A stretch of DNA of 63,117 nt, filler included, from Rhabdomonas costata (taxonomy: Eukaryota), in assembly GCA_019059605.1 (NCBI GenBank). It is 30 parts of 30 records of this genome, joined end to end, with 100 filler letters (N's around TTAATTAATTAA, not from the genome) between each part and the next. Parts side by side here need not be neighbours in the genome. Positions count along the whole stretch, not along the records: positions 42,162 to 44,167 come from JAHMHO010006499.1; 29 more parts are not named here. One strand, 5' to 3'. This document shows, piece after piece, positions 37,787 through 45,664 of the stretch. Below the pieces are notes generated by a model, which worked only from the letters and a program-made list of their open reading frames with translations, had not been told where the DNA came from and ran no database searches. Position numbers and translations under genes: made by a program. How positions within the stretch are numbered: the stretch's first letter is position 1; every line of letters begins with the position of its first letter.

Positions 37787-38825
37787 AACCGGATTAAGAA
37801 AATATAACGGTTGGTATTCTTTTATTTGAGCCGGAACCCACAACCCCACNNNNNNNNNNNNNNNNNNNNNNNNNNNNNNNNNNNNNNNNNNNNTTAATTA
37901 ATTAANNNNNNNNNNNNNNNNNNNNNNNNNNNNNNNNNNNNNNNNNNNNAGTGCTGGCATGCTTTCCGTCACCGCTTTAAATTGATTTTTTTTTGCAAAA
38001 TGTTAAAGCCAGTTTTCTGTTACCAGTGGTAACCGTTACCACCGGTAATCGTTACCACTGGTAACTTACCCCCCCCCCCCAACTTTCGTTGGGTCTTTGG
38101 TGCCACTTTGAAAGCTCATCCAGCCTCTCGGAAACCGTTAAGGTTGATCGTTGGAGTATGGTTATCCATGAAAGCCTTTCATTTTCCCTCTGCGGCGAAA
38201 TACTTTGTATGAACACCAAATATTGAACATTGAACAGCAGCTGATTGATTGTATGAACCATATCACGGGGTGAGCGGTACTCGTGGAAGAGGTGCCACCA
38301 AACGGTTCCGGTAATCAATCTTCCTGCAATCTCAAAGAGCCACGCCGGAAAGAGACATTTGCACCACTGAGGCCTGTATGTGGTGGAGGGCGGAGAATAG
38401 GCTGTTGCCCTGGCAAACATGACGAGCTGCGGGACAATAAGATGGAGAAGATGGGAGTTAACCCTGAGCCCCCACGTTCAAATTACTCAGCGCCGATCAA
38501 ATCGTCGCCTTTCCCTATCCCCACTGTATTCTTTGGAGATGCAGATAACAAGAACCGACATTGCAACTCGGGGGGGGGGGGGGGTGAGCGTGTGCAGGAC
38601 TAACGAAATGGGTGCTTACGCACCGCGGCACTAATGTTAGATGTTCAGAAACACACTGAAGGGGGTCTTATCCTCACTCGTATAATCGTCCAATTGCTTG
38701 CATTTTTATACGCAGAAAACCGCTTTCGATGTGCACCATCTCAGAATGTCTCGTGGGAAAGTCTATTTGGGGAGGCAGTAGGGGAGTACTTTCGCTTTTT
38801 GTGTAAGGGCTGTGCGGAGTTCCAG

Positions 38826-39633
38826 GGCTCGGCAGCGCAGCTGATGGCCGAGTTGTGCGCACTGAATCCCACCGCTGCGGTGGAAGAACTTCTGCTGCAG
38901 ATTCCGGTGTCTCAGGCAGCGCACCCTGCGGTCGTGCGAAGCCTGGCTGACTTTGCCTCCAATTCCAGTGTGAATGTGTGCAGCAGTTGGCGTTTTGTCT
39001 TGAGCAAAAACATTCCAAAACACACTGGCTAAAAAACCAACGCCTCATAACACCACCTTGAAGGGCCTCGTTGGGCAATTGTTGCTGGTCTTTTTCAAAG
39101 CAGCCAAACTTCCTGGGGACCTGTGTATCCTTGCAAGCCTTTTCGACCGGGAACCTAACATGCCTCATTGCTTCACGCGGTCACAGTGGTGCGTCATGTT
39201 GCTGTAATTTGGGTAGAGATGCTGTCAGGGGTTGTGTATGTGAGCCCAAGAGATCCCCCCTACATCCGGTAGCCGGTAATGGCACCCGTGCGAGGTCATT
39301 ATTTCCGGCTCCGGCTCCCCTCCCCGGACCCAGAAGCCACTCAGTGATTAGGGCGAAGATTTGCAAGTCCCCATTTCCCATTACCGGGTGGCCGCTGACA
39401 ATTGGTGCAGCTCGGGCAGGCAGCAGAAGCAATAGTAGAAGACCCCAAGAACTGCAATGGAAGAAAATCGCGTTCCGATAAGAAGCTGAACCTTGACAGA
39501 ATGACACGCATCCGATATGTTGTCCCCTGCACAGCGGAAAAGTTCTTGCCCAACCTTAAGGCTGTTCTGGCAAAGCTGTTGCCGGTGCTGCCCTACGCAA
39601 GGGCGGACCCCCTGAAGCTCGCCCTCAGCACAG
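38826..39633 (+). CDS. Maestro HEAT-like repeat protein (MROH1/HEATR7-like), exons 38826-38967 and 39535-39633
   Basis: VEELLLQIPVSQAAHPAVVRSLADFA and FLPNLKAVLAKLLPVLPYARADPLKLALST resemble the MROH1 N-terminus (ELL.k..pG..PH..VV.tLa.l / vP.l..vL..mLP.L). Phase-1 GT-AG join. Confidence 0.68.
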
Positions 39634-40119
39634 GTTTTGGATGAGCTCCATGACCCCCCCTATCTTGATCACTGTCACCACTTGCTTAGGGCATGGTGCA
39701 ACCCTTGCATGCACCGCATTGCAGCATTTACCTTGGCATATCACGCGCGTTAATTCTCTTTCTGTCTTTGCTACGCAGCCCTTATCTCCACCTCGATATG
39801 TTTTTGGTTTTACTTCCAGAAGCTGAAAAGGGGTTGCAAGGATGGGGAAGAATTACTAAAGGCACAACCACAACAGGTCGACAACCTTTGGGAAAGAATG
39901 CAAACTTTAGGCATACCCGGGAATGCAACAACCCAACCTTTCTTTCAAAAACACCNNNNNNNNNNNNNNNNNNNNNNNNNNNNNNNNNNNNNNNNNNNNT
40001 TAATTAATTAANNNNNNNNNNNNNNNNNNNNNNNNNNNNNNNNNNNNNNNNNNNNGGCAGAGGCCATTCAAGACCATTTTCCACAACTCTCACAGATACA
40101 ACTGCCAAAACGCCAAATG

Positions 40120-41538
40120 TTACACTGGCTCAATCTCTGCCAAAGTCCATTTCGGGATAGTCTGCTTTTTCCCGCATACGGTTCTCAGGCAGTTCACAAT
40201 GCACTTCGGAGGAAGCGGCCTCGGGATATTACCAGGACGATGTTCCCATACTACAGAGGCAATAGCACCGTACACCGCGGGGTTCAAATAGCGGAAGGGC
40301 TCAAAGCCCGTAAAGCTAGAGGGCTGAAGCAGGCAAGCGTAGCGGCCCAGCGCAGGTCTGTCAGCGGGAATGTCTCCTTGGACTGAGGTCCCAATCCAAA
40401 GCTCAGCATTATATCTCGAGGTTGGGTGCAAAAGCGGGTCCAGACGAAGAGTGCGGAGATGGGAGGCCCGGGCCCACCAAAAGTTGCCGCCGTAGAAGTG
40501 GTCCGTGTGAAGATTTTTGACTGTGCTCCGGAACAGGTGGATCCCAACGGTTTGGTAATGAGCCAGCAAGATGATGCACCACCGGAACATCCACACCGTG
40601 GCCCAGGTCATGACGCCTCTCCACATGTCCTGACCACGGGAGGATCGGTGGCCACCTTAAATGGCAACACAGAGATGCATAGCAATCGTTACGCCCAGTG
40701 CCCAGTGGAAGTGGAAAGATTTCCGAACTTTTCCCCTGTCGCAATTATAAGAGCCCAAATGAACACACACACACAGAGGACACATTTTACAGTTGAGTCT
40801 AGCACTCGTCTTGCTGATTCCTGGCGTACACATGTTTACTTCGGATGGGTCCAAGTGCGCGCATGTAATCGAGGAATGGGATGGGATGCGCTCGCCTTTG
40901 GTGTGGAGGTAGAGCACGTAGTCCTCAGGGTGTTGCCAGGTGTAGGCGTGGAGAGCCCGGAGGGTGGGATACTCGAACTCTCCCACAACCCCCCGAAATA
41001 CTACCGTGGCTCCGTGGAGTAATCCCGGGGTGACGCTCGGGCTGCCGACTATCCCGACGTACAGACGGGCGTGCTGAAGCAGCCCGGAGCAGTGCAGGGC
41101 ACGAAGAAGCTCCTCCGCCACCCCACCACTGCGCGGGGAGGAAAACCCGAGGTGCAGGAACACGGCCAGGCGCCGCGGAGGGCTTCCGAGCGCTTCCCGA
41201 AATATCGGCTCCCACAGACTTTCCTCAGAAGGCGACACCAAGGGTCCCAGGCGGTTGAAGAATGAGAGCTCCAATTTCCGCAGGGTTCGGAGCATCACTT
41301 TGGTGTCCTTGGAATGAGGAAGGCGCGAGGTGAAGTTTCCAGAAGGGCGGTTCACCCGTGAGGAAAGAAGAAGCTTCCGGAGCAGAGCAGTGGTCTCCGG
41401 GGACCCACCGCTCATGGTGGACGTGATGGTGACTCCGGGTTGGGAACCGGGAACAGACAAGGCATATGCGAGGTTTGCCACCACAACACTGACCAGCACC
41501 GTCCTGGTAAGCCGAAGGACGGGGCATTGATCTCCCAT
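40120..41538 (-). CDS. Complete two-exon type II membrane protein with a phage/giant-virus-like putative glycosyltransferase domain (exons 41538-40896, 40655-40120)
   Basis: Signal anchor, then FEYPTL, VLYLHTKG, WRGVM...WCIILL..YQTVG, HFYGGNFWWARASHL and RYNAELWIG. A GC-AG intron joins HTKG to GHRSSRGQDMWR. Confidence 0.75.
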
Positions 41539-42392
41539 TCCGACACAGGCTGTCAGAGCCATACAAAAGAAAGAGAGTCATGAACCGTCTGAAGCAGCAA
41601 CTTTCATGGAGAAAGTCATACTTGATTTATTCATCAAAGGAATGAACCAATTGGTAAGGTGAAAAGCAGTTTCTTCCTCCCTGAGAAAAGCTTCTTGCTA
41701 GACTCACCCTTTTAACATGTGGCCTGTGCTCGCCTTTTGAGCTTGGCTTTTCTTCGAGTGTGCTATCTCCCCATCCATCGGTATAGAGATCCATGTTGTG
41801 CTTTCATGGGCAGGTATAAATTGGCAATTTGGGGCCTTTTCGCTGTACTTGTTGTTATGAACACTTTACAGAATGGTGACACATCCTACAAATTAAAGGG
41901 AAAAGATGATGATCGATGATCACAAAAAAGAACCCAAAGTTTTTACCCCGTCTTTACAAGGAATTGCCACACTACCCACAGCAACCAAAAATGTCACTAC
42001 GCTGCATCGGGCGGATTTTTGGACCCCAACCTTCATAAAGACACTGTCAGTATTGGGCCACNNNNNNNNNNNNNNNNNNNNNNNNNNNNNNNNNNNNNNN
42101 NNNNNTTAATTAATTAANNNNNNNNNNNNNNNNNNNNNNNNNNNNNNNNNNNNNNNNNNNNGGTGGTGGGGAAAAGGGGAGTTGAGGTGGCCGGGTGCCT
42201 TTTGGGCCACTGGCAACCTGCCAGGGATGTGTTGCCATCGTATTTCGTCTTGCCGTTCTGTGGCTTTCTCATTTCATTGTGGGCCAGGTTCTCCCGAGGT
42301 TTGCATAGGAGAGAGAGAGAGGGAGGGAGAGAGATAAGGGGGGAATGATGCGTCGATACAAATACTGGGAATGTTGCGTTGTTTCCACACAG

Positions 42393-43729
42393 CTTCTGGC
42401 GGGGCCTGCGATCTTCCCGAAAGGTTTTACGCGTTGGAGAGGAGGGGCCTGGGTGGTGAAACCGGAGCATCCCTCTCCCTGTTTTTGTCGTGCCCTCTCC
42501 TCAGGACGAGACCCCACCTTGGTTCCCTTGCGCTAGTCGCTGGCCGTTTATTTCGGCCCCTCAGACGCGTTCAATGTCAGTGTTACGTCTGCTCGTCGCC
42601 CCCGCATTCATCGTGTCTTTTCCTCCCCTTTTACAGCTGTGACGGATTCCACGTGTTGTGCCCTGCCGACCGGAAGAATGTCGGGATGCAGTGCCGCGCA
42701 AAGGCCGGCGCCTGCGATGTTCCAGAGGTGCTATGCTGTGTGAGGATCACGCAGGAAGGGGGGTGGGGGGCGGGAAATAGATGCCTTCGTACCCCTTGTA
42801 CCTCTGGCAGAACTCATCTCAGAGGTAATGTAATTGATGCCATTAGCTCCATGGTGCCTGCGTTCTGACCGGCATACTAGGGGCTCTTCTTCTCAAGCCT
42901 GTATCGTATATGTATTTGGACGGACGACTTTTTGTCCCCCCAAACGCCCAAACCGTTTGGCAACCCGTTTGGCTGGTTTTTTCTCTTCATCGCAGTTTTG
43001 CACGGCGAATTCCAGTGACTGTCCTGTGGACATGCTGCAGCCTGCGAACACCCCATGCAACTCTGCTGCGGGAATGTGACCTCTTCCACACACATCCTCT
43101 GCTTTTTCTCGAATTCTCTGCCGTTTCGCAATGGATGCGAAGTCACGGCGCAAGTCAGTGATGCTCACTTATCCCTCCGCGGAGGTCCAAACCGTTCCCT
43201 AGCAGGCTTTATCGGTTGGTATACTAATCAGCCCGGCGAAAAGTATCTGCCCACTGTCCTGTCGAAGATGAGCCCTTCGCTGTGGGAAGTATGAGAAGCC
43301 ACACAGCGAATGGGGCTTTGAGAGGTTGGAACCACAATGGACCCTTCTAGATGCCACACCTAGAAGACGAAGAGATATATCCAGGGGCTGGGAATCTGCC
43401 AGTAAACTCTACTGAGGAGCAATGTCAACCCATCCAGAATGGGCCATAACCCATTAGTCTGGAAGCCCGGATGCGGCAGTGAAGGATGGATGGGTGCCTT
43501 TGCTGCCATGTACACACAAACATCCGTTGCTCTGCAGATGTCTGTGACAAGGCCGAGTGGTGCACGGGGAACTCTTCGCAGTGCCCCACGGACCAGAAGT
43601 GGGGCGCCGCTGTCATGTGCCGCCCCGCCGCAGGGCTGTGCGACGTCCCAGAATTCTGCGACGGGCAGGCCGACGCCTGCCCCCAGGACCTCCTGAGGCC
43701 CAACCAGTTCTCGTGCCGCTCCAGCGCTG
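42393..43729 (+). CDS. Tandem disintegrin-like Cys-rich repeat protein (exons 42393-42423, 42637-42727, 42996-43071, 43538-43729)
   Basis: At least four repeats of CR..AG.CD(L/V)PE.C.G.S..CP.D, the disintegrin-loop consensus. Confidence 0.88.
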
Positions 43730-44420
43730 GCATGTGGGGCACGTTTTTTGGGGCACCCTCGGCACGATGAATGCACTGTGAATGAAACGTGATAAAAAAC
43801 ACAGCCTCTCCTCCGTCCATTTCCACCGCATTTTTTCTGTTTCTGTTCGCTTCGTGGCGTTGGCATTTTCCTATGGGGCCGGGGGTTTTGCATCTTGCGT
43901 GAAGTGCTGGTCTGCTTCTCCTTGCTCTGAACTTTCCCATGGCGGGTTTTTGTTACATGCAGCGGAATCTTATCCGAAAACAGACCAAGAAACAACCCCT
44001 CCTGGCTCGACAGCAGACCCCTCCCCTTCACATCCAGCTGTTCACGACCAACCGCATATTGCATCCAATCAGTTGTTGAACGGAACACAAAAAACACTAT
44101 CGGCTTCCTCTGGCAGGCAGTTTCACGACGTACCATCGGAAGTGGACATTATAAAGGTCAACCACCCNNNNNNNNNNNNNNNNNNNNNNNNNNNNNNNNN
44201 NNNNNNNNNNNTTAATTAATTAANNNNNNNNNNNNNNNNNNNNNNNNNNNNNNNNNNNNNNNNNNNNGGGGTGTGGTTGGTGAACATAACACCAAGGGAA
44301 CTTCAGTTGACATATCCAGATCATGCATCCCACAGATGAGCGCATCGATACAACGATCGCAACAAAAGAGAGTGGGAAGGAAATGCACAAGTGGGAAAGA
44401 GAGAGGTCGAAAAGGCGGAC

Positions 44421-44637
44421 CCTCGGAGTGCAGGTAGTCCAGGCCATCCAGGATCTGCCCAAGATATTTCCTGAGCTCTTCTCCAGCAATCCTGCCGGCG
44501 CAGCTCAGGATTCGCTCCAGGGAGTTGGGCAAGTGCTCCATCACAAATAGCACCCGCTGGCCGTCCTCGTGGAACACCACGTCGTGCAATTGCACAATGT
44601 TCGGGTGGCTAGACTGGAGCTTCTCCAGGTTGTCCAG
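44421..44637 (-). CDS. Protein kinase domain exon (subdomains III-VIa)
   Basis: HPNIVQLHDV...LFVMEHL..SL...LRKYLGQILDGLDYLHSEG, flanked by AG and GT. Confidence 0.88.
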
Positions 44638-45664
44638 CTGATTATCAGGGGTCAGAAACCGAAGCGAAAGCGCTTATAAAAATGCACATCAAACAAGTAA
44701 AATGATGTACCCCAAATGAAAGCCGGAGGATAGTCTCTATTGGAATCCCAGGGGACACGTGCATCGCCTGCAAACCCGTGCATCTCCTTCCAGCCCCCCA
44801 ATCTGCTACCTTGTCGCTTACAGAACTGGACTGCTCGACTGCTGGGAGGGCGGTGTCCTTATGCCAGGGGGGTACATTAATGGACTGGAGCCAAGCACAT
44901 ACTGGGATGCGGCGAGTGCGGCATATCTGCATGCATATACACGTCACAGTCACTTGCTGTGGTCGAGTCGAGAGGTTCCTAGAATCTCTTTGGGTATGTG
45001 AGGGTCCTGAGCTCGCAAACTTCAAGCCCAAGACTCGTCAGTTTGACGGAAGTCGTCTGCAAGCGACATCAGGACTGTGCCGGCTAAGCGATCTTTTCAA
45101 TAGCTCCTCCCTTTTTGGAGAGAGCGAGCAGTCCATCTTTCGTTTTGTACGGTCAGCCATGCTTCGTTCTGTCTTCGTGTGAACTCTTCCCTGCAAAAAA
45201 AAGGTGCAAGTGCAACTTTATTTCAGTAGCTTCCTCTCCCTGGAAAACCTCGACGAGCACTCACACAACATTCACGTCAGGGTCGTTACTGGGCAATACA
45301 GCCATTGCTCGGTGTTTATTCTTGCAGAACGGATGGGGCTTCGAACCCGCGGGTACGGCGTTCGCCGGGTCTTATGTTGCTTCGTGGCCCCTCGTTTGAA
45401 TCAACTCGCACCCCCGGAGCTCGTGGCTCCTCCCAGCCCTGTCGGAGGTTGGAGCACCCGCTCTTCCGAAGGAGGGCCCCCCAAGACCGTCCCTACGATC
45501 TCTCTATGCTTCCAGACTAATCCTGCAACAATGACAATGGGTGTATCGTGGCGGGCAAGAAGAAGAGCAGGATGGGAATGAAATCATGTAACAGAATACA
45601 GCCAAGCAAAGCGGCGAAGAGGTCCGGGGGAGAGGGAGGGTGCAAAAGGAATGCTTCTCGTGCC

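Follow-up and report, generated by a model that had tools for sequence, protein, structure and literature searches.

We identified a candidate GA-AG intron in a gene encoding a disintegrin-like repeat protein of the euglenid Rhabdomonas costata (Table 1). It is likely that this is an ordinary U2-type (major-spliceosome) intron that carries A instead of T at donor position +2 and is still recognised through U1 pairing elsewhere in the donor. To judge from the sequence, splicing probably takes place at these borders.

The window, which is the whole stretch of 63,117 nucleotides that was analysed, is composed of 30 contigs, each some 2 kb long, that are linked through runs of N with a 12-base linker, and adjacency in it does not imply adjacency in the genome. 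The gene fragment (contig G000:C6499) comprises five exons or exon ends, and both gene ends lie off the contig. It encodes 32-residue disintegrin-like repeats (PF00200), a unit length taken from 69 intact paralog units. Each repeat has four cysteines. The genome contains at least 81 matches to the family, whose only relatives in the protein size range covered (112-2000 residues) were three unnamed proteins with 43-49% identity. Exons on neighbouring contigs were labelled by eye as protein kinase (44268-44673, minus strand), probable HEAT-repeat protein (38604-39644, plus strand) and probable glycosyltransferase-like protein (40120-41577, minus strand). An Rfam search of the window gave no match.

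An earlier reading of this DNA, made from the sequence only, had hinted at dinoflagellates. That hint was misplaced, as the organism is a euglenid: it has paraflagellar rod genes, and 69 of 69 residues in an exon of one locus are identical to RCo002385, a EukProt protein that in its remaining parts matches more exons of this locus. RCo identifiers denote Rhabdomonas costata (PMC8219788), a colourless osmotroph, and we used that study as evidence at the level of the species (R. costata or a conspecific).

Table 1. Features of the disintegrin-like repeat gene fragment in window coordinates (a slash marks an exon-intron border)
Feature	Position	Strand	Basis or remark
Contig with gene fragment	42162..44167	.	
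Exon (ASGGACDLPE), missed in the sequence-only reading	42393..42423	+	Spliced alignment
GT-AG intron, phase 2, 213 nt	42424..42636	+	Spliced alignment
Exon (CDGFHVLCP...CDVPE)	42637..42727	+	Spliced alignment
GT-AG intron, phase 0, 268 nt	42728..42995	+	Spliced alignment
Exon (FCTANSS...CNSAA plus one G)	42996..43071	+	Spliced alignment
GA-AG intron (borders very probable), phase 1, 466 nt	43072..43537	+	Spliced alignment; both X1 and X2 have A at 43073
Predicted donor CGG/GAATGT	43069..43077	+	Against U1 ACAUACCUG: 7 Watson-Crick pairs, one G-U wobble, one A-A mismatch (+2)
Rival GT donor AT/GTGACC, phase 2	43076..43081	+	Matching AG only via a micro-exon
In-frame TGA, reached on intron retention	43077..43079	+	
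Acceptor, CAG plus modest pyrimidine tract	43518..43537	+	Pyrimidine content 0.59 (GT introns average 0.72)
Exon, two 32-residue disintegrin-like repeats	43538..43729	+	PF00200, E 5e-10
Probable GC donor G/GCATGT	43730..43735	+	Acceptor off contig; candidate

Placement of the donor at 43072

The exon ending in CNSAA would continue into a TGA, and the exon that follows the CAG at 43535-43537 needs phase 1. Between 43064 and 43081 the donors in frame with the AG at 43537 are CT at 43066, CG at 43069, GA at 43072, TG at 43075 and GA at 43078, and among these only the donor at 43072, where GAATGT starts, keeps the repeat spacing. In 75 of 79 paralog loops, six residues separate Cys from Cys-Asp; the remaining 4 loops are longer. 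From the paralog repeats, with the target left out, we made a circular profile and used it for a spliced alignment in which the AG was fixed and the donor free. This alignment recovers both upstream GT-AG introns and selects GA at 43072, scoring 215.7 versus 201.3 for the best path limited to GT and GC donors (+14.4 bits). The join G/GAATGT, which the sequence-only reading had proposed from the stop codon, the acceptor phase and the repeat register, is thereby upheld.

The exact position is less firmly set than the register. The weak point is the left flank of the junction, where 10 residues contribute 9.3 bits and fall below our 12-bit filter, and the protein score alone slightly favours borders slid by 1-4 bases. 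Across the paralog loops the residue at the join is Gly in 62 of 75 and Asp in 6 of 75; slid borders give Gly and the GA-AG borders give Asp. When the acceptor is freed too, the target moves to GT...GT, and 9 of 45 canonical introns likewise shift their ends, so the register sets the length of an intron better than its position. Two paralogs (L006 and L026) have GT introns at the repeat position and in the phase of the target.

The next intron of the gene had been read as beginning with G/GCATGT at the same repeat position. The motif is indeed there, at 43730, with AT/GT at 43734 as an alternative; the intron itself is a candidate only, since the downstream exon is off the contig, and a GC donor at 43730 is plausible.

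The GT at 43076 could also be the donor if a hidden micro-exon lay inside the intron, a route that the sequence-only reading had named. There are 49 frame-keeping AG...GT/GC combinations that would provide such an exon, and the few paralog loops with more than six residues show that longer loops occur. However, every one of these combinations lengthens the loop, the T that they place at -1 is found in 1 of 79 GT donors, and the 14.4-bit deficit applies to them. Nor would a micro-exon account for another GA intron (L237, described below), at which paralogs fix the donor base. We consider a micro-exon very improbable.

DNA and RNA contigs over the junction

The sequence-only reading had asked whether the A at 43073 might be an amplification error. 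Contigs from the runs X1 (42978-43800, depth 12) and X2 (43040-44021, depth 6.5) have no letter but A at this position. The two differ at 43062, 43139, 43738, 43749 and 43760 and are thus distinguishable haplotypes, both with A; 43073 lies outside the X3 contigs. Some features of the data would suit an amplification or assembly error in place of GT: loose ends in the runs look like what we take to be a whole-genome-amplification adaptor, X1-X3 are from one sample that is possibly the assembly's own source, and assembled contigs drop rare variants. For these reasons the contigs exclude a one-off error but not every artefact. However, three GA donors share a motif that is present in 2 of 79 GT donors, and random T-to-A errors would not favour such sites, which together with the agreement of X1 and X2 makes an error extremely unlikely. 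RNA editing of +2, an idea raised in PMC7072748, is one that we do not favour, as we know of no mechanism for A-to-U editing.

An RNA run from another study (X4) yielded one 171-base contig on 43551-43719, identical over 169 bases, from a library that may contain DNA. This contig lies inside the exon 43538-43729 only and hence is blind to splicing. The contigs of the four runs X1-X4 contained no joint across the target junction, and none of the three GA junctions was spanned by a read, contig or transcript-derived protein that we examined. Looking for transcript-derived proteins over a GA junction yielded distant relatives only, three for the repeat exon (among proteins of 112-2000 residues) and 19 for the ATPase exon. 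Within the intron, a piece of 39 bases (43381-43419) recurs on other contigs of X1, X2 and X3 and is a dispersed repeat remnant.

These data also bear on whether the gene is a dead or poorly spliced copy, in which a T-to-A change broke the GT donor, leaving the intron in the transcript and ending translation at 43077. The family is redundant, a GTATGT donor would have been strong, and the protein of this gene was not found among transcript-derived proteins of 112-2000 residues; a dead allele is conceivable because the spliced product was not seen in the contigs or proteins searched. Yet all five exons are open, and the exonic differences between the runs number two (one synonymous, the other replacing Ser by Pro, which is common at this site) versus 11 outside exons, although these numbers are small. 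Moreover, the exon 43538-43729 is unchanged in X4, with the same caveat about library DNA, and the same donor motif is present in two other genes. We therefore judge a dead copy unlikely.

U1 pairing and the intron survey

The U1 snRNA 5' end, which the sequence-only reading had named as something to look for, was found in three complete identical gene copies (L001:1501-1667, plus strand; L002; L003). It reads ACAUACCUG in place of ACUUACCUG and is the complement of CAG/GUAUGU, so that GTATGT, the reference donor adopted earlier, matches this genome's U1 exactly. The sequence also fits the +4 T preference of the GT donors (44 of 79). No variant U1 was found by family or by DNA search; two further partial copies end before the 5' end. 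In E. gracilis all five bases of GTGTG donors pair with U1, one of them by wobble, and the accessible text of that study (PMC11170887) implies the same U1, so this form is probably euglenid-wide and not new. No such change of the U1 5' end is present in 69 yeasts that use GUAUGU (preprint 10.1101/2022.06.08.495308, accessible text). In R. costata U1, U2 and U6 are all present, with canonical pairing boxes in U2 and U6. The U1 and U2 genes at L001:1501-2259 lie tail to tail, 400 bases apart. U6atac was not found by a search that had no working control. The U12-type donor is RTATCCT, which the target donor does not fit.

The target donor pairs with U1 at 8 of 9 positions, and the duplex has a predicted energy of -8.8 kcal/mol compared with a GT mean of -7.0. 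A T-to-A change in a GT intron probably gave rise to the GA intron. The one known U1 would bind the GA donor through the other positions from -3 to +6, with a single A-A mismatch, and this pairing may be what rescues the donor. Normal GT donors are degenerate, and around four matches at the seven flanking positions appear to be enough for them. The 3' end would be read as a normal pyrimidine tract with CAG, and the G joined to AT would then encode Asp and leave the repeat intact.

We surveyed introns by the same spliced alignment at loci of the repeat family and of dynein, paraflagellar rod and P-type ATPase genes, which supplied a count of donor dinucleotides for these loci. The survey called 160 introns, from which 69 were dropped (68 with flanks too weak for the 12-bit filter and one duplicate). 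The 91 anchored introns that were kept comprise 83 GT, 5 GC, 3 GA and 0 GG donors. The target was added by hand despite its 9.3-bit left flank, and L237 came from a motif search; as both were selected, the unselected GA rate is 1 in 89. GA calls among the dropped introns (L014, L050, L056, L279 and L283) and GG calls (L015, L069, L277 and L280) include none that is well anchored. No anchored GA introns were found in the dynein, paraflagellar rod and other ATPase loci.

The sole GA intron found blind is in a repeat paralog (L039), where CAG/GAATGT is favoured by 22.6 bits over GT and GC routes. The third GA intron, in the P-type ATPase locus L237, also has CAG/GAATGT, lies within the TGDHP-x-TA motif and is favoured by 31.5 bits. 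Two paralogs of L237 have G/GT at the identical base and phase; these show the donor side only, as their acceptors are off the contig. Sliding the L237 border to a nearby GT loses a Thr that is present in 17 of 17 printed homolog motifs, and sliding it by 1-3 bases yields a Gly that is present in none of the 17. Two unrelated observations were made in the survey loci. The last 250 bases of the minus strand of L260 hold a near-perfect MITE-like inverted repeat, with arms of about 57 bases as judged by eye, inside a GT intron of an ATPase paralog. In L081 the second dynein heavy chain exon is intact apart from an in-frame TAA, at a position that is Tyr in the paralog, and this is an error or a broken copy.

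At the seven positions flanking +1 and +2, the GA donors match U1 at 6, 7 and 7, whereas GT donors average 3.76 with a maximum of 6. ATGT at +3 to +6 occurs in 3 of 3 GA donors versus 2 of 79 GT donors. The five GC donors, with a mean of 4.0 matches versus 3.76 for GT, are not clearly better, so the signs of U1 compensation are confined to GA. G at -1 is absent in only 3 of 79 GT donors (L037, L074 and L095), two of which start with GTATG. Two paraflagellar rod genes (L057 and L058) both carry a G/GCATGC donor, and that of L058 is confirmed by the transcript-derived protein P0004. The proposal that this spliceosome tolerates GT, GC and GA donors therefore holds for GC (5 of 91 anchored introns, one backed by transcript-derived protein), and the GA donor is very probably real. 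General tolerance does not follow. GA is rare, and each case that we saw pairs almost perfectly with U1, which would make any tolerance conditional.

Genome-wide counts of the donor sequences CAGGAATGT (912), CAGGGATGT (735) and CAGGTATGT (560) are not above Markov expectations. A test for a coding-to-intron signature, applied to 78 GA, 28 GG and 31 GT sites, did not work on the GT control either and thus had no power. When 92 open frames preceding 80 CAGGAATGT sites were scanned against Pfam, there were three hits, one of which is a real donor (L221/L237). The other two were rejected: in L194/L238 the site is inside an exon, and the remaining hit is far from its site.

Relation to nonconventional introns and to other lineages

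Euglenids have nonconventional introns, and the target could be one of these, or an intermediate intron: it would still be 466 nt long, but its borders would be shifted by 1-4 bases (as in AT...AT, which yields CNSAAGVCD) and its excision would proceed via end pairing. A slide of two bases yields the consensus Gly, CTG at -8 to -6, an intron ending in a pyrimidine, and C at exon +3; the last three are features of nonconventional introns (PMC4770533). In contrast, the 40-nt end duplex of the target, at -4.8 kcal/mol, is weaker than that of 96% of 76 GT introns. A test on 10+10 nt of the ends gave -0.6 to -1.7 kcal/mol or 0 for all five border choices, and the fold of the whole intron has a z of -1.35 with the ends apart. 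CAG at +4 to +6 is absent in every slide, with TGT and CTC found at the GA-AG borders, and the CTG of the two-base slide stands by itself. The U1 complementarity is near-perfect, not absent, and the paralog GT introns fix the same base. The end test on L237 gave -2.9 kcal/mol, within the range of a quarter of GT introns. Because the ends of the target are unpaired, we regard removal as a euglenid nonconventional intron as improbable.

The fibrillarin intron of E. gracilis, AG/gatc...ggag/GA, has GA...AG borders in a euglenid, as in the target, and is classed as intermediate on account of its structure (PMC3935182), a precedent that speaks for an intermediate class here. However, that intron has an end-pairing structure and a weak U1 match, whereas the target has no structure, neither a CAG nor a CTG motif at its GA-AG borders, and a near-perfect U1 match. 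Of the properties that define an intermediate intron, the target has the AG border and lacks the end-pairing structure. The conventional introns of the two species are alike: those of E. gracilis, too, have a degenerate GTGTG-type donor with T at +4 and a GC share of about 5% (PMC11170887). The accessible text of that survey has no GA-AG class and files all introns other than GT/GC-AG as nonconventional.

GA-AG introns are known in the copepod Eurytemora affinis and in Oikopleura dioica (PMC7072748). As in R. costata, they have a GA donor with AG/G upstream and A downstream and a normal AG acceptor, and form a minority class. In those animals GA-AG accounts for 3.2% of supported sites, more than GC-AG, and a variant U1 has been proposed, whereas in R. 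costata GA is about 1%, less than GC-AG, with the consensus GAATGT and no variant U1 in three complete copies. Core dinoflagellates likewise combine GT, GC and GA donors within one genome; there, GC/GA-AG (GC or GA) introns make up 25-74% in three genomes (PMC7789003), compared with about 5% GC and 1% GA in the unrelated lineage of R. costata. The term GA-AG does not occur in the accessible text of a diplonemid survey (PMC12621601); the accessible part of PMC11613528 provided background. A literature search that covered few subscription papers found no U1-matched GA-AG class described for euglenids.

Transcript-mapped introns of the species are listed in PMC8219788, with 11,418 in Table S2. 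In the supplement file, both strands counted, we found GT-AG 9461, GC-AG 634, GA-AG 185, CA-AG 122, TT-AG 92, GG-AG 91, CC-AG 86, AT-AG 82, CG-AG 82, AA-AG 15, AC-AG 10 and TG-AG 8, the classes AG-AG, CT-AG, TA-AG and TC-AG being left out of the counts. GA-AG is the commonest of the 10 counted XX-AG classes other than GT and GC, 1.5-fold over CA-AG, the next. According to its legend, Table S3 lists the non-canonical rows a second time; on that assumption GA-AG amounts to about 90 rows or 0.8%, close to the survey rate. Of the 26 read-supported candidates that have BLAST hits, 5 are GA-AG, and the authors' curated list contains none. In the accessible text these rows stand with the nonconventional candidates and are given by dinucleotide only, the intron section is silent on GA-AG, and 'U1 snRNA' has no hits in the main text. 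The tables are raw Exonerate output with repeated isoforms, and with this noise and a margin of only 1.5-fold they lend modest support to a GA-AG class.

It is possible, and we suggest only tentatively, that euglenids have an overlooked class of true spliceosomal GA-AG introns, at about 1%, that emerged from GT introns more than once and persist solely as G/GAATGT, the full complement of a single euglenid U1 with no variant U1, and that surveys have filed as nonconventional. Since the GA-AG type is already known, the gain would be a new lineage and a lead on mechanism, not a new system. If the suggestion is correct, the euglenid spliceosome would have relaxed its check of +2 independently of dinoflagellates and copepods, and such introns may mark the start of a path leading from conventional introns to the nonconventional type, itself unexplained. 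The target intron by itself supplies a testable rule for a donor that lacks U at +2, namely full U1 pairing around one mismatch, for which the paralog GT introns are natural controls. It also implies that some euglenid introns now counted as nonconventional are ordinary ones, which bears on annotation and on how the two types of intron are related.
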